From Candidatus Enterousia sp. (GTDB lineage Bacteria; Pseudomonadota; Alphaproteobacteria; Rs-D84): a stretch of 24,539 nt of DNA. Numbering within the stretch: position 1 is the stretch's first letter; each line of letters begins with the position of its first letter. The position numbers were made by a program, and so were the translations under genes. The stretch is from contig JAZRUN010000062.1 of the NCBI GenBank assembly GCA_045652565.1, positions 1 through 24,539 on the forward strand. Reading direction: 5' to 3'. This document shows positions 5,646-24,539 of the stretch, piece by piece. Under the pieces are notes generated by a model. The model saw nothing but the letters and a program-made list of their open reading frames with translations, had not been told where the DNA came from and did no database searches.

Positions 5646-5701
5646 ATCACCTATGTTAGTAAAAAACATCTAACCAGGTCAACAGAATTTATATGAAAAA
5701 A

Positions 5702-5903
5702 TTATGCTTTTTTCTCTTCTTGTAAAAAACCGCCCGATTGCATTTTCCAAAGACGCGCGTATTCACCGCGACGCCGCAACAAAACCAATAATAAACCTTA
5801 ACAGCCATGCCGCACTTAAATAGCCGTAAAAACCACGAAACGTATTTGCATAAAAGCCCAACAGAGTTTTGGGCATAGAAATATTTGATTGATTGGTTTT
5901 CAT
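5702..5903 (-). pseudogene. Internally deleted remnant of an MsbA/MdlB-like ABC exporter
   Basis: One frame from ATG 5903 reads MKTNQSNISMPKTLLGFYANTFRGFYGYLSAAWLLRFIIGF. A different frame over 5782-5702 reads LLRRRGEYARLWKMQSGGFLQEEKKA*, resembling the GxYAxLWxxQxGGF C-terminus of ABCB exporters. Confidence 0.7.
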
Positions 5904-5933
5904 AAAATTGCCCCCATTGCAGATAATACGGGA

Positions 5934-5978
5934 ATTTTATCACATACAACTTGCATCGGCAAGAATATTTTCTATAAT
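5934..5978. promoter_or_regulatory. Overlapping divergent sigma70-type promoters
   Basis: Plus strand: TTGCAT (5951-56)-16-TATAAT (5973-78). Minus strand: TTGCCG (5962-57)-17-TAAAAT (5939-34) with TGn extension. Confidence 0.55.
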
Positions 5979-5987
5979 CACTGCGCT

Positions 5988-6521
5988 ATGGCGCTTGAAA
6001 TCAAAGAATTTTCTTTACTAAACATTGGTTCGCAGTTTCACGAATTTAATTCCGCGGTTAAAAAGAATCGTAATCGCTTGGCGCCATATTTTTGGTGGGC
6101 AAACATGAATGCGGGCGCACGTTTTTGTTTTATTTTATCTGGACTGGTTGCGGAAAAGTTGACCGTTGTTTTTCACGATTTGCCATATAACAAAAAATTT
6201 ATCATTCGCAGGAATGGCGAATTTGCGGGGATTGTCGGACTTGACGGCCTTGCGCAAGGCGCGCCACGCGCAGAATTATGGTTTTTTGTGGTTCGCGAAC
6301 ACGAATGCCAACACGCGGCATCGCGTGCGATAAAACAGGTAGAGGCTTTTGCACAAAAGAAATCAGTAAAAAAACTTTATGCGCAAACCAAGTGGGATAA
6401 TATGGATGCGCGGCAATTATTGCACCACAATAACTTTGAAGTCTATGATATCAAACGTTATGCCAAAGAACAAATACTCTGGTGGGAAAAGACACTGTCG
6501 ACAAAAGTTATTGAAAAATAA
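5988..6521 (+). CDS. GNAT N-acetyltransferase, RimJ/RimL-like
   Basis: FAGIVGL, AELWFFV, QHAASRAI, N..ARQLL...NF pattern. Start placed at MALEIK (5988). Confidence 0.75.
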   Translation: MALEIKEFSLLNIGSQFHEFNSAVKKNRNRLAPYFWWANMNAGARFCFILSGLVAEKLTVVFHDLPYNKKFIIRRNGEFAGIVGLDGLAQGAPRAELWFFVVREHECQHAASRAIKQVEAFAQKKSVKKLYAQTKWDNMDARQLLHHNNFEVYDIKRYAKEQILWWEKTLSTKVIEK

Positions 6522-6551
6522 AATAAAATCGTTAAAATGAATTTGCTTTTT

Positions 6552-6626
6552 GGTCCCATCGTCTAGCGGTTAGGACATCGGATTCTCATTCCGGTAACAT
6601 GGGTTCGATTCCCATTGGGACTGCCA
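6552..6626 (+). tRNA. tRNA-Glu(CTC)
   Basis: Cloverleaf: acceptor GGTCCCA/TGGGACT (G1:U72), anticodon loop TT-CTC-AT, T-loop TTCGATT, encoded CCA. Confidence 0.95.
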
Positions 6627-6637
6627 AAAATCAAGAA

Positions 6638-6659
6638 TCACCCGTTTGGGTGACTTTTT
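6638..6659 (+). terminator. Intrinsic terminator after tRNA-Glu
   Basis: TCACCC-gttt-GGGTGA followed by CTTTTT. Confidence 0.7.
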
Positions 6660-6682
6660 GTTAGATTTCTAAGCATTTCACA

Positions 6683-6734
6683 AGTTCGTAAGTCTGGCAT
6701 TGAAAACAGCCACCGTTTTGCACATTTACGAACT
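6683..6734. repeat. 52-bp palindrome-ended element, copy A1
   Basis: AGTTCGTAA-34 nt-TTACGAACT, preceded by TTCACN. Confidence 0.9.
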
Positions 6735-6743
6735 ATTAAAAAG

Positions 6744-6767
6744 AAAAGGTTAGAAATCTAACCTTTT
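6744..6767. terminator. Perfect hairpin, likely terminator of the lipoprotein gene
   Basis: AAAAGGTTAG-aaat-CTAACCTTTT. Confidence 0.65.
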
Positions 6768-6798
6768 TCATGCTTCGTATACATTGTGGGTGTTTGAA

Positions 6799-7221
6799 TT
6801 ATTTAAACAATATTTCTAGTTCCTTTTGTGTATTTTCATCTATCAGTTTTGCTTGCAAATGTTGATTAGGGTTTGCGGATTCCACTTCTTGCCAGAAACA
6901 TTTGCGGTCATTTAAATTAAATCCCATTTCAATCCAACCTTCTCGCAATCCAATATTTTTGGTGTCTAATATATAAAAATCTAATTTGTAATCAGTATTT
7001 GAATACGTTATGAACGTGTTCTTCACGCTTTCCTTTTTCAATTTTATATCTTTTCCATCAACAGATATTACAGCATAATTTTTATATAATTTTATATCTG
7101 TTGTTGGATTGCCTTCTTCTGCACCATTACAGAAAAAACCAGTCCCAACATACACAGGTTTGTCAGAACAGGCACTTAGACTAATTAAAATTGGCAAAAT
7201 TAACAAAGATAATTTTTTCAT
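6799..7221 (-). CDS. Hypothetical lipoprotein (cargo 1)
   Basis: MKK, hydrophobic core, lipobox LSAC; AAGGAG RBS. Confidence 0.8.
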   Translation of the reverse strand: MKKLSLLILPILISLSACSDKPVYVGTGFFCNGAEEGNPTTDIKLYKNYAVISVDGKDIKLKKESVKNTFITYSNTDYKLDFYILDTKNIGLREGWIEMGFNLNDRKCFWQEVESANPNQHLQAKLIDENTQKELEILFK

Positions 7222-7251
7222 TTTTTACTCCTTAGTTATAGCATCATTATA

Positions 7252-7344
7252 TCATAAATTTTTCAAAAACACTTTAATATCTTTCCCGAACTGCAACAAA
7301 TCTTTGATTTCATCGGTTCGTGAATTGCACAGTATGTCCTGCCA
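7252..7344 (-). repeat. Right-end segment B1 (att-like, ends in CTGCCA)
   Basis: Homologous to 8041-8139. Minus frame from the CCA reads WQDILCNSRTDEIKDLLQFGKDIKVFLKNL*. Confidence 0.85.
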
Positions 7345-7352
7345 AAATAGAT

Positions 7353-7377
7353 AAAACCGCATTTTTGCGGTTTTTTT
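7353..7377 (+). terminator. Terminator-like hairpin at the left end of unit 2
   Basis: AAAACCGCA-tttt-TGCGGTTTT(TTT), positioned like the hairpin after the tRNA. Confidence 0.65.
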
Positions 7378-7400
7378 ATTAGTTTTGCAACACTTTCACG

Positions 7401-7452
7401 AGTTCGTAAGTTGAGTGTCAAAAACCGTCCCCGTTTCGCTGATTTACGAACT
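7401..7452. repeat. 52-bp palindrome-ended element, copy A2
   Basis: Same arms and length as A1. Confidence 0.9.
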
Positions 7453-7455
7453 TTT

Positions 7456-7992
7456 TTATTTGGTTTTTATCAAAAATGTATCCAAATATGGAAACAATTT
7501 CATCCTTTCAGCAGACCAGGCTTTGGTGCTTTGTAAATTTGGAATTGGTTTCAAAGTCATTAAATAATCTATGGTTCGTTTTGTCTCTGCTGAACGCTCT
7601 TTGTACGCAGTTAGACATTTAAAACCAGAGCTGAGAATAAAGAAATATAATGCGGACAGATAATTATAACCATGGTCGTTATCTTTGAAAAACGCAGCCT
7701 GGTCATTTTTTTTATAATAACCGCATGTATCACCAATTCTGATAAGTTTGTTATTAACATCAAATCTTATATAATGATCATCTGTACGCAGTTTATGAAA
7801 AATAGAAAAATGCAAGCTTTTATCGCTTTGGTCGTTCTGTTTATTCTGAGCAAATATAGCTTCTTCATATGAATAATTAACGCGTTTTACCTGCAAAGGA
7901 ATAGTTTTAGTTATTTGAACCATTTTTTGTAATAACAATATGGATAAATCTCTCTGTTCCATTTCTATTGATTTTTCATCAAGGCCTGCCAT
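7456..7992 (-). CDS. Hypothetical protein (cargo 2)
   Basis: AT-rich ORF with no recognised motif. Start at MAGLDE (7992) or 8025; the stop lies 3 nt from A2. Confidence 0.7.
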   Translation of the reverse strand: MAGLDEKSIEMEQRDLSILLLQKMVQITKTIPLQVKRVNYSYEEAIFAQNKQNDQSDKSLHFSIFHKLRTDDHYIRFDVNNKLIRIGDTCGYYKKNDQAAFFKDNDHGYNYLSALYFFILSSGFKCLTAYKERSAETKRTIDYLMTLKPIPNLQSTKAWSAERMKLFPYLDTFLIKTK

Positions 7993-8040
7993 TGTCCATC
8001 TCTTTATTTTATGAGAAATATACAATAAATCTTGATATTG

Positions 8041-8139
8041 TCAATAAAAACAATTGTTCAAAAATAGTTTGATTTCTTTCCCAAACTGCAACAAATCGCA
8101 TATCTTATTAGTTCGTGAATTGCACAGTATGCACTGCCA
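8041..8139 (-). repeat. Right-end segment B2 (att-like, ends in CTGCCA)
   Basis: Minus frame reads WQCILCNSRTNKICDLLQFGKEIKLFLNNCFY*. Confidence 0.85.
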
Positions 8140-8296
8140 TCCGCTTTCGCTTACGCTACAGCGAGATTGAGCATCACGCCGTAGCCAGCGCGTTCGGAGC
8201 AAAAAACTTTATCAATTCCTGATTTTTTATTCATCGAAATTAAGCACCAGCATAGGCGGACCTGTCTCGCCGTAGTTTTACGAAGGCGGATGCCAT
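8139..8296. repeat. REP/MITE-like element with imperfect terminal inverted repeats
   Basis: Left ATCCGCTTTCGCTTACGCTACAGCGAGA matches the reverse complement of right TCTCGCCGTAGTTTTACGAAGGCGGAT. TGCCAT occurs at 8135-8140 and 8291-8296. Confidence 0.7.
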
Positions 8297-8307
8297 ACTT
8301 ATTCACT

Positions 8308-8359
8308 AGTTCGTAAGTTGGTAATTAAAAACAGACCCTATTTTGCTAATTTACGAACT
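8308..8359. repeat. 52-bp palindrome-ended element, copy A3
   Basis: Same arms and length as A1 and A2. Confidence 0.9.
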
Positions 8360-8372
8360 TTTAATATCATTA

Positions 8373-8672
8373 TTAAAATCCCAAAGCATATAAACCAAAC
8401 AAAGAAATGGCAAATAAAGGGAACAATATAATCGAAACCCAAGCGGCTATGTTTTTGTGTGTTGGTGCTATATATCTTGCAATAAAGTAAGCCACAACAG
8501 ACTGTACCAAGAACCAAATAATCAGAAAAGGTGTTTTGAATTTTTCAAAATCACCAATAAAATGGGCTATATATGCAGATAGCACTGAAACAAAATATAC
8601 TGTGAACAATACAGCAGGTACTAATAATATCCAACGCAAAATATTTAGGTTGTCATTTTTTTGTTTTTTCAT
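8373..8672 (-). CDS. Hypothetical membrane protein, about 3 TM (cargo 3)
   Basis: Three hydrophobic stretches; AAGGAG RBS. Confidence 0.78.
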   Translation of the reverse strand: MKKQKNDNLNILRWILLVPAVLFTVYFVSVLSAYIAHFIGDFEKFKTPFLIIWFLVQSVVAYFIARYIAPTHKNIAAWVSIILFPLFAISLFGLYALGF

Positions 8673-8719
8673 TTTTTACTCCTTTTGCAGTTCGTCTAGC
8701 ATTTTTTGGAGCTAAACAA

Positions 8720-9268
8720 TTATCTTTTTGGTTTATAAACTGTGTGGCCCTGGGTCACATAATCTTTTAAAACCTTTTCGCCCGCATCTTGTTCTATTTG
8801 GCCGTAAACGGTTATACCGCGTTTTTTAAATTCGTTGTGCCAGTTTTGCTTAAACCCTTCGTCAAATCCGGTTATTTTGGTGACATGCCTAGAGGGAACG
8901 CCATAATAAACCGCTTTGATACCCGACCACATAATACTGCCCAGACACATCATACACGGTTCAGATGTCACATACATACTCAAATTATATGGCGATAAAT
9001 CATAAGTCCCCAGTTTCTTTTCTGCCATTTTTATCGCATTCATTTCGGCGTGATTATTACTGCAAGATTTATTCACAACATTATTGGCGGCCTTGGCAAC
9101 CAGATTGCCTTTTGAATCATAAATGGCGGCCAAAAACGGGCCATAACCTTTGTTGATATGTTTTTTCAACTCTTGCTGTAAATCCAATATAATTTTATTG
9201 GCCCTAATCAGTTTGCGATTATCAATTTTTTCATTAGCAATCACAGATGTTTTGTTATTTGTTTTCAT
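8720..9268 (-). CDS. Zn-dependent nucleoside/nucleobase deaminase (CDA superfamily, guanine deaminase-like)
   Basis: GPFLAAI, HAE and EPCMMC motifs, then WSGI..VYYG. Confidence 0.9.
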   Translation of the reverse strand: MKTNNKTSVIANEKIDNRKLIRANKIILDLQQELKKHINKGYGPFLAAIYDSKGNLVAKAANNVVNKSCSNNHAEMNAIKMAEKKLGTYDLSPYNLSMYVTSEPCMMCLGSIMWSGIKAVYYGVPSRHVTKITGFDEGFKQNWHNEFKKRGITVYGQIEQDAGEKVLKDYVTQGHTVYKPKR

Positions 9269-9379
9269 ACTGCTACCTTTTTAGAGAATTATGGCATAAT
9301 TTAGACTAAATTGCAAAACAGCTTTTGAAAATCTTTGCCGCCCAACCACAAATCGTGCCACCGACAGGTATGTTTAATA

Positions 9380-9408
9380 TTGCTTTTTTGGGCAATTTAT
9401 GATATAAT
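9380..9408 (+). promoter_or_regulatory. sigma70-type promoter
   Basis: TTGCTT-17-TATAAT. Confidence 0.6.
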
Positions 9409-9499
9409 AAGGAACAATCAGCAGACGGCTTTTGCCGTCTTGTTTTATTTCCGCCTGCGTGCGGAATTTTTTTATTTAATTATAAACAAAGGCTAAACA

Positions 9500-10090
9500 A
9501 TGAATAAAACACCAGATAATATATTCGACGCTGTGCAAAGTTCACAAGCCCTACGTAAACCCGTTATTGATAACCGCAAGCAAAACATTATTCATAAAAC
9601 AATGGCGGAAGAAGGCGGATATGCAGATAATCCAAAACTGATTGACCAGCCAACAAATTCAGGCATAACACAACCAACACTGGACAAATACAATGCAGAT
9701 CATCCAGACTTTAATTTCCCAGATAAAGTAAAAGATTTATCCCCAGAACAAGCACGGCAAATATACGGCGAAGATTATTATGATGAACGCCGTATTGGCG
9801 ATATAAAAAATGAACGCATTGCAGCGACTGTATTTGATATGGGGGTTATGAGCAATTTCAACAATGTTGGAAAAATTATTCAACAAACATTAAACGATTC
9901 AATAGGCGCAAATTTAAAAATAGACGGCAAAATTGGCGACAAAACAATAGATGCCTTGAACAATATCCCGGACAATAAAATTGATGATTTTATGCAAGAT
10001 TTAAAAGATAACAGAATTAAATATCTGCGCGGCCTGCCCGATTGGAACAAATATGGAAACGGCTGGACAAGTCGTACAAATAGATATTGA
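9500..10090 (+). CDS. Glycoside hydrolase family 108 muramidase with C-terminal peptidoglycan-binding motif
   Basis: EGGY catalytic motif, T-NSGIT, IY..DYY, DGKIG.KT, KYGNGWTSR. Confidence 0.85.
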   Translation: MNKTPDNIFDAVQSSQALRKPVIDNRKQNIIHKTMAEEGGYADNPKLIDQPTNSGITQPTLDKYNADHPDFNFPDKVKDLSPEQARQIYGEDYYDERRIGDIKNERIAATVFDMGVMSNFNNVGKIIQQTLNDSIGANLKIDGKIGDKTIDALNNIPDNKIDDFMQDLKDNRIKYLRGLPDWNKYGNGWTSRTNRY

Positions 10091-10140
10091 GTTTTATACA
10101 ACTGTTTTGCAGCAATTAATATATAGGAGTGTGGGAATTT

Positions 10141-10201
10141 TGTGAATAATACAGACAGCAATAATATACAACGTACGATATTTATCTTGTCATTTTTTCA
10201 T
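10141..10201 (-). pseudogene. Frameshifted 5' fragment of a paralog of cargo 3
   Basis: Aligns with 8601-8672: NDKINIVRCILLL-SVLFT vs NDNLNILRWILLVPAVLFT. The ATG is followed by an A6 run that puts it out of frame (ATG AAA AAA TGA). Confidence 0.7.
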
Positions 10202-10256
10202 TCTTTTATCTGTTGATGTTCATATACAAAACAGCGCGCCAAGTGGCATGCCGATG

Positions 10257-10715
10257 TTATCTCGCAGATTTGCTGCCCGTCAAACCTTGGGCTGGGCCAT
10301 AATGCGTGGTCTTGCAGTATTCAAAATAAAATGCAACAACATCCCTGTGCGGACGCGCAATCAGTTTATATGCATTCACATTTTGTTTTACAGCCGCCAT
10401 TTGGACTTCGCGTGATGGATTCCTAATAAACTTTATCGCCATACCATTTTGTTTTACCGCCGCAATTTCAATTTCTTCGGTCGCACCGTTCACATATTCC
10501 AATGCAAGACCATTTTGGCGCACTGCACGCAGGCGCAAATCATAGGACTGGTTAGACACAAAGCGAAGGACAAAAGGATCGATATGCACCGCGCGACGCA
10601 AAAATTCGGTGCTTGGATTTTTTATATCTGCACCTGTAAATACACCACCAGTTTTTTTAAATTTTTTCACCTGCGCCAATAATTGTTTTTCGTATTCGGT
10701 CATCTTTGTTGTCAT
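10257..10715 (-). CDS. DUF4116-like repeat protein
   Basis: Tandem AV(R/K)QNG(L/M)A(L/I)x(Y/F) repeats. Confidence 0.75.
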   Translation of the reverse strand: MTTKMTEYEKQLLAQVKKFKKTGGVFTGADIKNPSTEFLRRAVHIDPFVLRFVSNQSYDLRLRAVRQNGLALEYVNGATEEIEIAAVKQNGMAIKFIRNPSREVQMAAVKQNVNAYKLIARPHRDVVAFYFEYCKTTHYGPAQGLTGSKSAR

Positions 10716-10730
10716 AGTGCAACCTTTTAA

Positions 10731-11099
10731 TTATTTCAACAATTCTCTCGCTTGATTTAACAAACCGATTGCCAAATCTATCTTGGTCGTGTCCAATGCC
10801 GTTGCAGACGAACTGCGTGAAGGTGCGTTGTCCGCCCCAGGCGCAAAATTGGTGGCGATAAATTCGCCCCCGCGTATTAGTTTTTTTACACCTGCGATTG
10901 TCATTCCGCGATTATAAAGCAAATCTTGAATCGTTTTTAACCGCGCAATGGTTTCTGGTCTATAATAGCGTCGCCCACCTGCGCCCGCGACAGGACGCAC
11001 AACGGTCGGAAATTGCTTTTCCCAATAGCGTAAAGTATGCGTCGGAACCCCAAGTTCGCGCGAAACAGTGTTTATTGGAGCAAAGTATTCACTATCCAT
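10731..11099 (-). CDS. MerR-family transcriptional regulator
   Basis: [19 protein letters not shown]...GGRRYYR w[13 protein letters not shown]. Start MDSEYF (11099) overlaps the gyrA stop. Confidence 0.88.
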
Positions 11100-13833
11100 T
11101 TTCAACCGACCCCGCATCTGGTTCAGAGTTTGTTTCATCCGCATCCGCGCCATCCGATTCAATAGATATCGCAGACATAACCTTTTCGTTTTCGGCCGTA
11201 CGGAACAATGTCACCCCCGCGGTGCTGCGGCCTGCAATCCTGATATCTGATGCAGGAGTGCGAATAATTTTGCCGCCGTCCGTCACCATAATAATATCGT
11301 TATCAGAATTTACAGGGAACGAACCCGCAACCGCAGTATTCTTGCCACCAAGTTTGATGTTCGTAAATCCGCCACCACCACGATGGGTCAAACGATATTC
11401 ATAAGAACTGGTGCGTTTGCCGAACCCATTTTCAGAAATGGTCAAGATAAATTCTTCGCGCGCGGCCATTTCCGCCATCTTGGCATCATCCAGGACAAGT
11501 GTTGTTGTTTCTTCTTCGGTATCTGCTTCTTCTTCTACGCCCGTTTCTGCGCGGCGTGCAGCGCGCGACTGTTTCACATACGCCGCACGAACCGCAGAAT
11601 CTGATTCACCACGATTTAGCATAGACATACCGATGATTCTATCATCTTTGCCAAGTGTGATTCCACGGACACCTGTTGAATTGCGACCTGCGAAAACACG
11701 AATTTCTGGCACAGGGAAACGGATGCAACGGCCCCGATATGTTGCCAAGAATACATCTTGGTCTTCGGCGCATGGCAACACAGAAACCAAACTGTCACCT
11801 TCGTCCAACTTCATCGCAATCTTTCCATTGGCGCGTATAGAATCGAAATCTTCTAAACGATTTCTGCGCACAGTACCTGATGCCGTCACAAACATCAAGA
11901 AATGTTCTTTGCCAGAATCTTTAATTGCCTGAACATCTTCTTCTGGCACCGGCAAAATAGCCGTAATCGTTTCATTTTCCGCCAACGGCAACAGATTGAC
12001 CAGTGGCCGTCCCTTGGCAGCCGCCGCCGCTTCGGGCAATTTATATGTTTTTAATTTATAACACAATCCACGTGACGAGAAGAACAACAACGGCGTATGC
12101 GTATTCGCAACAAACACCTGGACAACATAGTCGTCATCTTTTGTTGTCATCGCATTGCGTCCTTTGCCGCCGCGTTTTTGCGCACGGTATGTATCCAGCG
12201 ACACGCGCTTGATATAACCAGTATTCGAAACCGTCACCACCATATCTTCACGCGCAATCAGGTCTTCTATATCAATATCAATTTCCGCATCAGAAATTTC
12301 TGTTCTGCGTGGCGAAGCCCAGTTATCACGTACCGCAGCGGTTTCTTCACGGATAATTTGCACAATGCGTTCATGTGATGCCAAGATATCTAACAAATCA
12401 CGAATTTGTGCACCAAGTTCGACCAAATCCGCGTGCAATTTGTCGCGTTCCAGTCCTGTCAATCTGTGCAATTGCAATTCCAAAATTGCGCGCGCCTGGT
12501 CTTCGGACATATAGAACATACCGTCTTTATATTCTGTATTTGGGTCGTCAATCAATTGAATATAGTTTTCAATATCAGACGCCTTCCATCCGCGCGAAAC
12601 CAGCGCAACACGCGCATCTTCGGGGCTTGCCGACGATTTGATAAGTTCAATCACTTCGTCCAAATTGCCGACCGCAACCGACAGGCCCAGTAATGTATGT
12701 GCACGATTACGCGCTTTGTTCAAATCGAAAATCGTTCTGCGGCGAATAACTTCTTCACGGAATTCAATAAACGCATCCAAAACGCCACGAACATTAAATA
12801 ACATTGGGCGGCCACGATTCAATGCCATCATATTTACAGGGAAATTCGCCTGCATTTCTGTGTATTGAAACAGGTGATTCAGCACCACATCAAAAATCGC
12901 ATCGCGTTTCAATTCAATAACTATGCGCAGACCTTCTTTGGACGATTCGTCACGAATTTCGGAAATGCCTTCGATTTTTTTATCTTTGGCAAGTTCCGCA
13001 ATTTTAATGATAAGTTGCGCCTTGTTCACTTGGTATGGAATTTCATCAACAATGATTGCGTCATGGTCGTGAAATTTTTCCATATGTGTTTTTGCGCGCA
13101 CTATGATAGAACCGCGCCCAGTTGTATGCGCTTTGTATGCGCCACTGCGTCCCATAATGATTGCACCTGTTGGAAAATCAGGTCCCGGGATAATTTCAAA
13201 CAATTCATCATCAGAAATCGATTTGTTATCCAAAATCGCCAAAATACCATTGCAGATTTCACCAAGGTTATATGGCGGAACATTTGTTGCCATACCAACC
13301 GCGATACCCGAACCGCCATTCACCAAAAAGTTTGGAAACTTGGTCGGCAAAACAACCGGTTCTTGCAGAGTGCCATCAAAATTCGGCTGCCAATCAACGG
13401 TGTCTTTGTCCATATCTTCCATAAGTGTCGCACCAAGTTTGGAAAGTCGCGCCTCGGTATAACGCATAGCCGCGGCCTTGTCCCCGTCGCGCGAACCAAA
13501 ATTACCTTGACCTTGGACCAACATTTCGCCCATAGAAAAATCTTGTCCCATACGAACCATCGCTTCGTAAATAGAACTGTCGCCGTGGGGATGATACTTA
13601 CCCATAACATCACCAACGATACGCGCAGATTTCACAGTCGGTTTTGTTGCGGGCGCAACCTCGTTCATAACATACAGAATACGACGATGCACAGGCTTGC
13701 AACCATCGCGAACATCAGGCAACGCGCGGTCTACAATAACCGACATCGCATAGTCCAAAAAGCTGGTTCTCATTTCGTGTTCCAACGAAGATTGTGGAAC
13801 TTTGATTTCGTTTGTATTTTCTATTTCTGACAT
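11092..13833 (-). CDS. gyrA: DNA gyrase subunit A
   Basis: [17 protein letters not shown], catalytic AAMRY, GyrA-box QKRGGKG, C-terminal beta-pinwheel repeats. Confidence 0.98.
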
Positions 13834-16819: not shown

Positions 16820-17740
16820 TCACAACAAAGAAAAATTCTTTTTAATAATGCGCGCACTGGCACGCAGTTCTGCGGATTCTGTCTTTGACATTTTTGGTGT
16901 CAAACTGAACACCACACCAGAGGCGCCGACAACACGTGGCAAAGACATTGCAACCGAATCTTTGGCAACCATGGATACCGTTAAAATTCTGCGTTCATCG
17001 TTTACTATGCAACGCAACAAATCTGCGACAGCGGCACCAATACCGTCCCAAGTTGCGCCACGACCGTGAATAATCTCGTACGCGGCATTACGAACACGAT
17101 ATTCTATTGTGCGTCGCCCAGACACCGAAATCGGCGTTTTTGTTTGACGACAAAATTCATCCAGCGACAAACTGCCAATTGTAATCGCAGACCAATCAAT
17201 AACACTTGCATCACCATGTTCGCCAAGCACATAAGAATGTATAGATTGTGGCGAAACATTCAATGTCCGCGCAAGCATTGTTCGCAAACGCGCAGAATCA
17301 AGCATTGTGCCGGTTCCTATGACGCGCGCGGCTGGCAATCGTGACAATTCGCGCGCAAGCATCACCATAACATCCAATGGATTTGTGACAATAATTAGAA
17401 TCACATGACGCGAATCCACATTTGCCATAACACGCGGAATAATGTCACGAATAACTTCGGCATTATGCTGCAACAAATCTGTACGCGTTTCGCCAACTTT
17501 CTGATTTGCACCCGCCGCAATTATAACAATATCAGACCCACGAATGCCGCGATAATTATTTACCGCATTGATTTTAATATCAAATCCAAAAGTCGCGGCG
17601 TGCCCTAAATCTTCGGCGGCGGCGCGTGCGCGAATCCCATCGCGGTCAAACAAAACTATTTCATGAACCAGACCGGTATTTTTAACCGCGGTTGCAACCG
17701 CAGACCCCACAGAACCAACACCAATAATTGCGACTTTCAT
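16820..17740 (-). CDS. ldh: L-lactate dehydrogenase
   Basis: GVGSVG, GANQKVGETR (Gln specificity residue of LDH), TNPLD, LDSAR, GEHGD. Confidence 0.92.
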   Translation of the reverse strand: MKVAIIGVGSVGSAVATAVKNTGLVHEIVLFDRDGIRARAAAEDLGHAATFGFDIKINAVNNYRGIRGSDIVIIAAGANQKVGETRTDLLQHNAEVIRDIIPRVMANVDSRHVILIIVTNPLDVMVMLARELSRLPAARVIGTGTMLDSARLRTMLARTLNVSPQSIHSYVLGEHGDASVIDWSAITIGSLSLDEFCRQTKTPISVSGRRTIEYRVRNAAYEIIHGRGATWDGIGAAVADLLRCIVNDERRILTVSMVAKDSVAMSLPRVVGASGVVFSLTPKMSKTESAELRASARIIKKNFSLL

Positions 17741-17950: not shown

Positions 17951-20029
17951 ATGAAAAGACGTTCTTTTGGAAATTTGTGCAAGAATGCCCTTGGCACTGT
18001 GTTTTTATTACTTGGTGCGTTTTTCGTTTGTTCAACTTTGTTGTCTATGCGCGCGGTGTTTGCAGACCCGATTGCACCAACTGTACCGAATGACACCCAA
18101 GCATCAAATCAGCAATCTGGTCGCAGCAGTCCACGCGCAAATCCGCGTGCTAACTCTGGTAACACCGCCCGTCCAACGCGTCAAACAAATGCAAATCGCG
18201 GAACCGCTGGTCGGAACGTTGTATCACGCACAACCCCTACAAAAGCAAGCACAGCAACCCCTGCACGCGCCGTTGTCGCACGCAGCACCCCCAGTCGTCA
18301 AACTGCCGCAACACGTGGCACAACAACCCGCAATGTTCGTGCACGCAACGCATCACAATCGCGCGTTTCATTGACTGGCGATGCCATCCGCGGCAGCAAA
18401 ACAAACAACAGCACATATTATACATATTTGAATGGGAAACTTTATACTGGCAATTATTCAACCATAATTGACGCATCAACTGGTTTGATTTCTGCCGACG
18501 CATACAGCACATGTTTAGAATCATACTATACATGTATGGATGAAATTTGCACTGCGCGCAACGAAGCACAACGCCGGTGTGCCTGTGCGGGTCGCGTAAA
18601 GTCTTTTGCGGCGGCCGAAGACGCATTGGAATCTGCAAATGCAGAACTGTTAAAGATTGCGGGCCAGGTTGCCTTGTTGAATATGAGCAAGGGCAAAGAA
18701 GTTAGTGCGGCTTTTTCCCTTACTGACGCAGAAAAGGTTATGAACTGTGTTTCCTGGAAAGAAGCAAGTGAAAACGGCACAAATAACGATAAATTTGGAG
18801 AATGGTGTGCAGAACACGGGTTGTACAAGGATTCGGAATGCTCTTATACCAATGCACCGACTTACTGTTCGTCCGCCAGCAACGGTGGCCTGTTCGACAT
18901 AGGCAAACTTGATGGCACAAGCAGTGATATTTTGGCAACGCTGTCTTCTTGGGCGGATACAATCAAAGACAACACAAATACAATTTTAACAAACAACAAT
19001 GATGCCGTTGCCGCCGCGCTTGAATCTGTTGGTGGTATCGTGACTGGGATTACGGGGTCGTTGATAGATCTTGGGGACCAAGTCGAAGATACCGTATCCG
19101 AAACTTGGGGTTATGATTTGTTTGGCTATGCACACAATAATGTTTGCGCGCGCGTTTTGGATTCTTGCTTTAATGGCATTTACGAAGCATGTGGCACACC
19201 TCCGTCGGGTGGCCGTTGCGCAAATGGCGCAAACTCTTCTTGCCCATATAATTACAACAGCAAAATAACGATTTCTTCGTCTGGTGACGTGACATTGAAT
19301 GAACGCAGCACCAGTGGCGCAAATGCATCCGCTTCGTGCTTTGGTTATACATCAACGTCGGGTGACCCGTATTCTGCGTTGCGTGGGCCGGTTGCCGATG
19401 CGCGTCGCAGTATAATGCAAAAATATTTGTTGGATGCAAATGCAGACTGTGACCTGTATGGCGAACAATTAAAGAATGCTGCACAAAAGATAAACTATCA
19501 GAAAGTTGCGGCGCAACAGGCATTGCAACAAAAACGTTTAGAATTTTATAACGAAGAACAAGATAAAATTTTGTCCGAAGCAATTACCGCAGGAACAAAC
19601 TTTAACGAATGCATAAGTGAATTGTGGGATTGCTATGAAACACAAGAGACCGCACATCAAGATTGGCCCGAGGCACGCATCAAAACATATTGTGCACAAA
19701 TTGCAAACGTACCACATTGCTATCAAGATATGATTTGCAATCCATCGTATGTACAGTTCAAGGCGATAATTGACAAGGAAGACAGCACTGCTTGCAAATG
19801 GGACACAAGCGATTATACCAAAAACACTTGTCGTAATGTCGTGACATTAAACGAAATATTAAACAAAGCGGATAGTACCGCTGCTGACCCATCCAGCAAC
19901 AGAACAAACGCTGGTAATTCTGCGCAATTCCGTGAACACTGTCTGCAGCAGGCACTCGGTTGTTCGACGACCAACGACGCATCTGGTTGCATCCGCAATT
20001 GGCACAAGGCAAGTTCCACGGGTAATTAA
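17951..20029 (+). CDS. Exported cysteine-rich hypothetical protein (paralog 1)
   Basis: Signal-like N-terminus, R/T/A-rich linker, CxxxYxxCMDxxC...RRCxC motif. GGAG RBS and a downstream terminator. Confidence 0.85.
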   Translation: MKRRSFGNLCKNALGTVFLLLGAFFVCSTLLSMRAVFADPIAPTVPNDTQASNQQSGRSSPRANPRANSGNTARPTRQTNANRGTAGRNVVSRTTPTKASTATPARAVVARSTPSRQTAATRGTTTRNVRARNASQSRVSLTGDAIRGSKTNNSTYYTYLNGKLYTGNYSTIIDASTGLISADAYSTCLESYYTCMDEICTARNEAQRRCACAGRVKSFAAAEDALESANAELLKIAGQVALLNMSKGKEVSAAFSLTDAEKVMNCVSWKEASENGTNNDKFGEWCAEHGLYKDSECSYTNAPTYCSSASNGGLFDIGKLDGTSSDILATLSSWADTIKDNTNTILTNNNDAVAAALESVGGIVTGITGSLIDLGDQVEDTVSETWGYDLFGYAHNNVCARVLDSCFNGIYEACGTPPSGGRCANGANSSCPYNYNSKITISSSGDVTLNERSTSGANASASCFGYTSTSGDPYSALRGPVADARRSIMQKYLLDANADCDLYGEQLKNAAQKINYQKVAAQQALQQKRLEFYNEEQDKILSEAITAGTNFNECISELWDCYETQETAHQDWPEARIKTYCAQIANVPHCYQDMICNPSYVQFKAIIDKEDSTACKWDTSDYTKNTCRNVVTLNEILNKADSTAADPSSNRTNAGNSAQFREHCLQQALGCSTTNDASGCIRNWHKASSTGN

Positions 20030-24197: not shown

Positions 24198-24286
24198 AAA
24201 ACACAAACCGACCTTTATGGTCGGTTTTTGTTTTTGGCTATGGGTGGTGAGATGAGAACCACGGGTTCGAAACCAAGTAGATTTCG
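24182..24286 (+). repeat. 105-bp exact direct repeat, copy 1 (tRNA-Tyr 3' 16 nt plus downstream hairpin)
   Basis: Identical to 24435-24539 (period 253 bp). Confidence 0.95.
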
Positions 24287-24434
24287 GAAGCGCCCGCGCA
24301 CCGAAATCGTCACGGGTTGCGCGCAGCCGGCACATAGTGCCGAGCGAGCGAATACGAGAATACACAATTAGAAAAATCATAAAAATCGCAGGAACAAGAT
24401 TTTTATAGATTTTTATTATTGCGTATCGAGGCAC

Positions 24435-24539
24435 CCACCCACTCCCACCAAAAACACAAACCGACCTTTATGGTCGGTTTTTGTTTTTGGCTATGGGTGG
24501 TGAGATGAGAACCACGGGTTCGAAACCAAGTAGATTTCG
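24435..24539 (+). repeat. 105-bp exact direct repeat, copy 2 (runs off window)
   Basis: Identical to 24182-24286 up to the last base of the window. Confidence 0.95.

Follow-up and report, generated by a model that had tools for sequence, protein, structure and literature searches.

We analysed a window of 24,539 nucleotides (nt), meaning the whole stretch studied here, from contig C62 of assembly G000, a 663-kb metagenome-assembled genome (MAG) that is 82% complete. It belongs to Candidatus Enterousia, which falls in the order Rs-D84 and has a genome size below 1 Mb (PMC12306168). Behind a tRNA-Glu(CTC) gene, the window carries a tandem array of gene cassettes separated by a repeated non-coding junction. 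Such tRNA-Glu-anchored arrays occur genus-wide and are hypervariable: self-contained cassettes, with a conserved and structured junction between them, are acquired, lost and swapped both inside a species and across species, with new gain at the tRNA-proximal end and with empty alleles in some relatives.

The tRNA-Glu gene ends in CTGCCA at 6626, as an earlier note on this DNA had read and as ARAGORN and Rfam confirmed; the hexamer consists of the last acceptor bases, the discriminator G and the encoded CCA. A repeat finder detected two kinds of repeat behind it. The first is a 63-nt block that contains a hairpin site (S52, the 52-nt hairpin site) and is present in three copies, 73–79% identical (6677–6739, 7395–7457 and 8302–8364). 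The second is an 88-nt right end (RE) in two copies that are 82% identical; both close in CTGCCA, at 7344 and 8139, just where the earlier note had seen two homologous segments end. Profile searches recovered the window repeats with E = 1e-12 to 1e-29. Units 1 and 2 do measure 718 and 795 nt, and the offset of 51 nt from the core to TTCAC is indeed the same in both (6626 to 6677, 7344 to 7395). The hairpins that follow the cores (6636–6655 and 7353–7374), described earlier as terminator-like, score as intrinsic terminators on both strands, and 12 terminator-like sites were counted between 6400 and 9600, versus 2.0 ± 1.5 in shuffled sequences. The G+C content is 31–36% over 6500–10000, versus ~43% elsewhere, and the cargo genes of the window all lie on the minus strand. 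Searched with Rfam at a permissive threshold, the region 6000–11000 and the second array described below gave tRNAs and no other RNA family. The features are listed in Table 1, where TS denotes the terminator plus S52.

Table 1. Features of the tRNA-Glu(CTC) array and its surroundings in the window, with related gene pairs of other genomes in the last row.
Feature	Position	Strand	Basis or remark
tRNA-Glu(CTC), array anchor	6552..6626	+	ARAGORN; Rfam tRNA 61.7 bits
TS no. 0	6627..6739	+	terminator hairpin 6636-6655, then S52 6677-6739; nhmmer TS profile E = 4e-24
Unit 1 cargo gene's own terminator	6744..6767	-	terminator scan
Unit 1 cargo, 140-aa predicted lipoprotein (MKKLSLLILPILISLSAC...)	6799..7221	-	no Pfam family
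RE no. 1	7257..7344	+	three parts: RE-a, RE-b, RE-c
TS no. 1	7345..7457	+	bidirectional terminator 7353-7374, S52 7395-7457; nhmmer E = 2e-29
Unit 2 cargo, function not assigned	7456..8025	-	likely start ATG at 7992
RE no. 2, ending CACTGCCA	8052..8139	+	repeat finder, profile search
Non-coding insert, 156 nt, between core and next S52	8140..8295	+	
S52 no. 3, without preceding terminator module	8296..8364	+	nhmmer TS[47-111] E = 4e-12
Unit 3 cargo a, 99-aa membrane protein, no family	8373..8672	-	
Unit 3 cargo b, 182-aa zinc deaminase (dCMP_cyt_deam_1 / MafB19-like)	8720..9268	-	
Possible degenerate RE remnant, weak	9316..9360	+	read from sequence
GH108 / PG_binding_3 muramidase-like gene	9500..10090	+	within low-G+C variable interval
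Distal flank: DUF4116 protein and MerR-family regulator	10257..11162	-	conserved in relatives
gyrA, beyond distal flank	11092-13833		
Mpi-family gene pairs in relatives	L292:3269-5742; L294:2811-5660; L296:3023-5616; L297:3223-5629		

The S52 arms of TS no. 0 are AGTTCGTAAGT and ATTTACGAACT. The RE is built of three parts: RE-a (...TCTTTCCCGAAC) accompanies the cargo, RE-b is a variable stretch of ~20 nt, and RE-c (GGTTCGTGAATTGC...CCTGCCA) looks like a decayed version of the 3' end of tRNA-Glu. In unit 1, the terminator of the cargo gene is an extra module that is also present in a subset of cassettes of other genomes, and many cassettes have the first ~70 nt of the cargo in common. The unit 2 gene has a promoter (TTGACA-16-TATATT, 8044–8017) ahead of its likely start ATG. 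The TGCCA that had been pointed out at 8295 closes the 156-nt insert, whose ends pair with each other and whose first 30 nt recur in relative G055 after a 19-nt duplicate of the tRNA-Glu(CTC) 3' end. As for unit 3, the third S52 copy and the two cargo genes proposed for it are there, and its deaminase is 83% identical to the one that closes the array of G007; the end assigned to it at 9360 is only a weak RE-like remnant. There, ~27 nt within 9316–9345 are ~70% like RE-a/b, RE-c is deleted and TGCCA stands at the end, and the RE profile had no significant match at 9316–9360. The muramidase-like gene that follows lacks RE or S52 borders and is missing from the G062 allele.

We compared this locus across relatives, where unit number, order and cargo behind tRNA-Glu do differ, as the earlier note had anticipated. 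The most direct case is unit 1: window positions 6700–7308 are 99.6% identical over ~600 nt to a cassette of G077, a yak-rumen MAG whose gyrA is only 83% identical to that of the window. In G077 this cassette is the third visible one of a large array on the tRNA-Glu(TTC) side. At the locus that corresponds to the window, G077 has tRNA-Glu(CTC), a unit-2 homologue (74% identical DNA) directly behind it, a 219-aa cassette, two genes, MerR and GyrA, and in G000 unit 1 lies between tRNA-Glu(CTC) and unit 2. Because the unit-2 homologue adjoins the tRNA in G077, unit 2 is old at this site and unit 1 is a recent tRNA-proximal gain. Empty-site alleles were also found: G062 has the same flanks and zero cassettes, and G076 has the tRNA, the terminator and S52 only. 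The G055 allele holds a single cassette, encoding a 963-aa helicase, and after its RE a copy of the native tRNA-Glu(CTC) flank. A near-identical unit 1 in two species, together with the empty alleles, means that the cassettes move. The proposal that cargo is exchangeable thus held, in that the same cassette occurs in different arrays and at different positions, one copy being 99.6% identical across species. Insertion at the tRNA end is likewise compatible with what we found, since the newest unit adjoins the tRNA and the RE ends in what looks like a decayed tRNA-Glu 3' copy.

Variation was also visible in the Logan metagenome data, which consist of assembled contigs only and in which individual joints were not relied on. 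In four other gut metagenomes the depth of the unit-2 cargo was near zero with the flanks present; unit 1 was low in one run, and unit 3 was absent from another. The joints seen when these contigs were checked for excision circles and clean deletions were short-sided or came from related junctions of other strains and were not counted.

The arrays are a property of the genus. The 201-nt junction gave matches of 69–86% identity in 37 of the 60 genus genomes sampled (about 60%) and nothing comparable in 16 genomes from other families. The S52 pattern GTTCGWAA-N26-38-TTWCGAAC was present in 113/151 genomes of the same genus, in 4/20 from other genera of the family and in 1/29 from other families of the order, and the reversed control pattern in 3/201; the pattern matches listed all measure 49–51 nt. 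Records carrying the same element are Candidatus Enterousia or gut/rumen Alphaproteobacteria. Array size ranges across the genus from 1 to 8 or more cassettes. Arrays stand directly after tRNA-Glu(TTC) in G001, G002, G004, G011, G019 and G077, and directly after tRNA-Glu(CTC) in G003, G077 and the window. Contig C34 of G000 itself ends in a second array of at least five junctions of the same build, which closes in a degenerate core, CCTGGA. The assembly is without tRNA-Glu(TTC) and tRNA-Asp, and in relatives both genes sit exactly at the point where C34 breaks off. A TS module is also found behind tRNA-Leu(TAG) on C34. Junction parts in G000 are confined to the C62 array, the C34 array and this one place behind tRNA-Leu, which rules out a dispersed repetitive extragenic palindrome or miniature inverted-repeat transposable element. 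Carriage by phages or plasmids was rejected as well: the RE pattern had only two matches in IMG/VR, neither confirmed by profiles.

We delimited 79 cassettes from ~45 loci. The cargo is 313–1822 nt long and contains one open reading frame in 70 of the 79; about two thirds of the cargo is oriented against the tRNA and about one third with it. Only 14 cargo clusters have more than one member, most cargo genes being singletons, and where cargo is shared its members occupy different positions with different neighbours. The families include GNAT, subtilase, HAD, LRR_5, outer-membrane-protein barrel, methyltransferase, NERD and LD-carboxypeptidase; the large proteins are subtilases, LRR proteins, a Tlde1-like protein and a helicase. 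No recombinases were found among the top Pfam families of the cargo. Promoter-like sites precede the cargo genes, and a bidirectional terminator separates the cassettes. The array of G019 carries a 398-aa protein (L032:9210-10406) with a Tlde1 / YkuD-type L,D-transpeptidase domain. This fold is known from type VI secretion effectors, and some of the cargo may serve inter-bacterial competition.

The junction that joins the cassettes is ~200 nt long and consists of RE, CTGCCA, a bidirectional intrinsic terminator and S52 (59 TS modules and 119 REs were aligned). The terminator has one geometry and few stem variants, for example CACCC/GGGTG, ACCGC/GCGGT and CCGACC/GGTCGG. S52 is a hairpin with a fixed length of 49–50 nt and the arms GTTCG(T/A)AA and TT(A/T)CGAAC. 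The arms are at least 90% conserved, and the centre is variable and usually still able to pair. The mean minimum free energy of S52 is −14.4 kcal/mol versus −7.3 for shuffles, the plus strand is more stable than the minus strand at 64 of 88 sites, and where only one side of the outer stem has changed, the result is mostly a G.U pair on the plus strand. The RE is an imperfect inverted repeat, TTCCCGAACTG ... CAGTTCGTGAA. Taken together, S52 and RE hold four copies of GTTCG(T/A/G)(A/G)A per junction, and the junction motif GTTCGNAA resembles the T-loop of a tRNA. The last ~30–35 nt of the RE can be aligned over their full length with the final ~32 nt of tRNA-Glu (p ~0.01 against shuffled sequences); the alignment of RE-c with the tRNA spans the T-loop GGTTCGAAT to CTGCCA, and only CTGCCA is exact.

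RE and TS are contiguous (gap 0 ± 1) in 35/53 junctions. Non-coding inserts of 66–247 nt occur in 13/53 junctions in relatives, and the window insert at 8140–8295 is of the same kind. A transfer-messenger RNA (tmRNA) origin of these inserts was ruled out, ARAGORN finding none in the arrays or the assembly and Rfam none in the window or L006; ARAGORN found no tmRNA gene at all in the 82%-complete G000 assembly, where it may be unassembled or too divergent. Behind tRNA-Glu, G004 and G055 have non-coding mini-elements that end in exact 14–19-nt duplicates of a tRNA 3' end, and further ones occur behind tRNA-Leu in G002 and behind tRNA-Tyr at window positions 24198–24450. Elements of this kind show that insertion at tRNA 3' ends is an active process in the lineage. 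Behind tRNA-Tyr (24198–24539) a 253-nt non-coding unit, which takes in the following terminator, is arranged in tandem and ends in a 16-nt tRNA-Tyr 3' copy. Its AT-rich, long-hairpin module of ~85 nt (GAATACGAGAATACACAATTAG...TTATTGCGTATCGAGG) recurs in many inserts of Enterousia tRNA-Glu arrays.

Other subfamilies of 49–50-nt palindromes, with arms GTTCGAAAGT...ACTTTCGAAC and different centres, were seen at other loci in relatives as pairs ~1 kb apart (for example G006:C4:7728-7776 and 8709-8757; G191:C4:16313-16361 and 17601-17649; G124:C15:24388-24436 and 25157-25205), and these may mark other cassette sites of the same system. One metagenome contig (run X2) matches the window through the tRNA and terminator up to 6669 and picks up again at 6739, so that precisely the S52 of unit 1 is missing; the skipped segment (6670–6738) is flanked by an inverted repeat, 6660–6679 / 6743–6762. 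This single contig, with a 30-nt side, may represent an S52-less allele.

We wished to define the block that is exchanged and compared 11 cassette pairs whose cargo is 91–99.6% identical in different contexts. The right arm of S52 was 0.91–1.00 identical within pairs (background 0.91), and the left third of the RE, through TCTTTCCCGAAC, 0.83–1.00 (background 0.78). The S52 loop was shared in 3 of the 10 scorable pairs (background 0.64). In the 11 pairs, identity stayed at background for the terminator, for the left arm of S52, for RE-b and for RE-c together with its CTGCCA core. Thus, the moving block is S52 right arm, cargo and RE-a, and not a segment running from CTGCCA to CTGCCA. The unit borders that the earlier note had drawn from core to core must accordingly be given up: in the 11 pairs the cargo carries only the right arm of S52 and the left third of the RE. 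On either side of the cargo the breakpoint lies within a palindrome, between its two arms: S52 on one side and RE on the other. Composite "empty" sites, with S52 joined directly to RE-b/c, were found at none of the loci examined.

How might such a block move? We tentatively favour, with somewhat less than even confidence, site-specific recombination at the S52 and RE palindromes by an enzyme acting in trans. The palindromes, with four copies of the T-loop-like GTTCGNAA motif per junction, would be the recombination sites; the recombinase would be supplied in trans and would not be encoded at the locus, and new cassettes would enter at the tRNA-proximal site. The array would then perform an integron-like gene capture without IntI or attC, with each cassette transcriptionally insulated. 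What leads us to this reading is that the length is fixed, the arms are conserved, the centre compensates, one strand is favoured, the motif occurs four times and the tRNA end is mimicked; such features mark recognition sites and go beyond mere homology.

Several observations weigh against it. The gaps between half-sites, at 23–34 nt, do not resemble the cores on which known tyrosine or serine recombinases act. The left breakpoint varies over ~45 nt of S52, at one extreme ahead of the loop and at the other immediately ahead of the right arm. In 27 complete junctions adjacent segments showed zero linkage, so the junctions are mosaics; a coherent "junction module", looked for by this linkage analysis, was rejected. 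The assembled Logan contigs contained no circular or excised form. Every genome compared is a MAG; since exact stretches shared by junction copies do not exceed ~30–40 nt, assembly chimeras at junctions are unlikely, yet possible. No serine recombinase was found in the 82%-complete G000 assembly, and G071, which is 96% complete and has junctions, has no serine recombinase and only two tyrosine recombinases. The serine invertase found close to some arrays, an Mpi-like protein (260.7 bits versus a cut-off of 272), probably serves another function. Its gene lies 0.2–1 kb past the last RE in G007, G002 and one metagenome contig, which has a second small serine recombinase at the opposite end of the array. 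In 10 other genomes, the orthologue is always paired with a divergent gene for a 470–690-aa surface protein, and no GTTCGNAA motifs were found near it. Arrays occur in 10/12 genomes with the orthologue and in 27/48 sampled genomes without it, which is not a significant difference. The Mpi-like invertase was downgraded as the array recombinase on account of its surface-protein partner, the lack of motifs nearby and the arrays in genomes without it. The Mpi-family and surface-protein genes stand head to head with a gap of 250–370 bp, the latter encoding an 'MKKHLILTSL...' protein, and the pair looks like an invertible-promoter phase-variation switch.

The earlier note had reported no integrase, and this holds for the window. 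The whole assembly has two tyrosine recombinases, an XerD-like and an XerC-like protein (297 bits each), which score 106–117 bits on the integron-integrase model (cut-off 265) and so are not IntI. No cognate integrase was found in the G000 assembly, where supply from unassembled or foreign elements is possible. The note's proposal of mobilisation in trans by a recombinase found no backing in gene linkage, as no recombinase is consistently linked to the arrays: XerC adjoins an array only in G016 and G066. Extra tyrosine recombinases of 360–440 aa occur in several genomes of the genus. Mobilisation by reverse transcriptase, primed at CCA, was rejected too, reverse transcriptases being present in 24/61 genomes and near arrays in none. 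RecA and ComEC, on the other hand, are present in G000 and in 12/12 genus relatives tested.

These last two proteins are what the most serious rival calls on. In this alternative, no recombinase is dedicated to the arrays; junctions and tRNA act as portable homology for RecA-dependent homologous recombination or gene conversion after DNA uptake, a route that has been proposed for the minimal mobile elements of Neisseria, and the junction itself is kept for some other purpose, such as cassette insulation and protection of the tRNA gene, or by concerted evolution. We consider this distinctly possible, if less than probable. It best explains the variable left breakpoint, the mosaic and unlinked junction segments and the missing recombinase, arrays being found in genomes with only XerC and XerD. 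Moreover, since gene conversion stops where the cargo is not homologous, it would by itself produce the pattern seen here, in which linkage to the cargo is limited to the segments next to it. Identical stretches between junctions are, however, mostly no longer than 30 nt at 75–80% overall identity, a poor substrate for RecA, especially between species. Homology also leaves unexplained the fixed 49–50-nt length of S52, its arms conserved to at least 90%, the pairing centre, the strand asymmetry, the four motifs and the mimic of the tRNA 3' end in the RE.

A second alternative, the strict form of the model in the earlier note, takes the units as miniature non-autonomous elements running from CTGCCA to CTGCCA, integrated at the tRNA-Glu 3' end by the integrase of a co-resident element acting in trans, with the crossover at or beside CTGCCA as in accretion at tRNA-site islands, and blurred by later gene conversion. 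Much of the anatomy would suit it. The RE ends in what looks like a decayed tRNA-Glu 3' copy, the same kinds of terminator follow REs and tRNAs, the native downstream flank of tRNA-Glu(CTC) is copied after the RE in G055, the newest unit adjoins the tRNA, and the C34 array stops exactly at its degenerate core. The mini-elements with exact 14–19-nt direct repeats of tRNA 3' ends show that such integration does occur in the genus, and the 360–440-aa tyrosine recombinases of several genomes could be set beside them. The linkage data, however, contradict this model unless gene conversion is rapid: core, terminator and RE-c were not inherited with the cargo in 11/11 pairs, even at 99.6% identity. 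Exact sharing with the tRNA amounts to the 6 nt of CTGCCA, TS is also found behind tRNA-Leu, whose 3' end differs, and the assembly contains no integrase. We regard this alternative as improbable.

Finally, it is hardly credible that the arrays are immobile, that a gene and its regulatory flanks were duplicated locally in tandem and then diverged, and that the conserved parts are ordinary promoters and terminators. Some cargo is paralogous (one signal peptide is common to the lipoproteins of 140 and 130 aa, and C34 encodes related proteins of 171 and 133 aa) and the junction does hold a genuine terminator, but cargo families are mutually unrelated, the same junction frame encloses cargo of either orientation, a cassette is 99.6% identical across species with 83% gyrA identity, empty alleles exist and the promoters lie outside the RE.

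Two observations concern the neighbourhood of the array. Between a PBP5-like gene and tRNA-Glu(CTC), G077 has an intact 595-aa ABC-exporter-like open reading frame (L288:964-2751); the window has only short exporter remnants at 5689–5949, and 5838–5978 is 77% identical to the start of the G077 gene. Cumulative GC skew has its minimum at window positions ~18000–18500, with a negative sign before and a positive sign after, which suggests a replication origin in the window, near gyrA. With the origin there, the array would lie on the left replichore and its plus strand would be the lagging (nascent) strand.

Returning to site-specific recombination at the S52 and RE palindromes, the obvious comparison is with integrons. 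Like sedentary integrons and clusters of attC sites without an integrase (CALINs), the arrays consist mostly of single-gene cassettes with accessory or unassigned functions, bear a recurring imperfect-palindrome site of ~50–60 nt at each cassette border, differ in content among close relatives and receive the newest cassette at one fixed end; like CALINs, they contain no integrase. There are also differences. No IntI is encoded anywhere in the G000 assembly. The earlier note was right that the sites are not attC: the arms AGTTCGTAAGT and ATTTACGAACT lack the attC core, and in place of GTTRRRY / RYYYAAC they read GTTCGTA, with C and not a purine as fourth base (arms compared by reading). In attC only the structure is conserved, whereas the sequence of S52 is itself strongly conserved, and each cassette has two different sites, S52 and RE. 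Integron cassettes are promoterless, co-oriented and served by the common promoter Pc, whereas those of Enterousia have their own promoter and a bidirectional terminator, and about one third of them are reversed. The anchor is a tRNA gene and not attI. Every defining integron test failed except variable cassette content. The arrays could be an independently evolved and hitherto undescribed integron-like platform, anchored at tRNA-Glu, with two kinds of hairpin site built from the T-loop-like motif and with cassettes that recombine as folded single strands or through a housekeeping or unrecognised recombinase, an idea suggested by the absence of a dedicated integrase in ~0.9-Mb genomes; as a whole we rate it somewhat unlikely.

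Other systems share parts of this picture. Tandem accretion of non-autonomous units at tRNA or similar att sites is known for the cis-mobilizable elements (CIMEs) of Streptococcus integrative and conjugative elements and for Prochlorococcus tycheposons and their satellites. The likeness lies in the tRNA 3' anchor, the tandem units without integrase, the apparent remnant of the tRNA end at the distal side and the variable cargo in a genomic-island hot spot. Enterousia units differ in being 10 to 100 times smaller with one gene each, in their decayed tRNA remnant and their long conserved junction with extra hairpins, in an exchanged block that does not end at the tRNA-like core, and in that no cognate integrase was found.

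The pdif modules of Acinetobacter plasmids depend on Xer and use 28-bp sites composed of XerC arm, 6-bp spacer and XerD arm. They too are modules of few genes with short conserved borders, found in varied contexts without a recombinase of their own, and a housekeeping recombinase is therefore suspected; in the G000 assembly, XerC and XerD are the only site-specific recombinases. The half-sites of S52 and RE are, however, 23–34 nt apart; by eye, no XerD-arm-like TTATGTTAAAT was seen and the GTTCGTAA arm is only loosely XerC-arm-like. Moreover, the Enterousia arrays are chromosomal and tRNA-anchored. In the minimal mobile elements of Neisseria, cassettes are proposed to be exchanged by homologous recombination between conserved flanks. 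As in Enterousia, different whole-gene cassettes lie between conserved sequences without mobility genes, in a host with RecA and a DNA-uptake channel; in contrast, the Enterousia flanks are not housekeeping genes but dedicated, structured and repeated non-coding modules, and its arrays hold multiple cassettes. A literature search found no description of this tRNA-Glu cassette system.

Enterousia are uncultured Alphaproteobacteria of the gut, and most species keep one or two hypervariable arrays behind tRNA-Glu. Genomes of less than 1 Mb are expected to have lost mobile DNA. If the hairpins are true recombination sites, integron-style gene capture would have arisen a second time and independently in these arrays, using other sites and cassettes that are insulated and express themselves, and lacking a cognate integrase. 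They could then bring to light a new pair of recombinase and site, or show that XerCD or folded single-stranded DNA is put to a new use. There is a practical side as well: with the conserved 200-nt junction as a probe, the accessory gene pool of these bacteria can be harvested from metagenomes.

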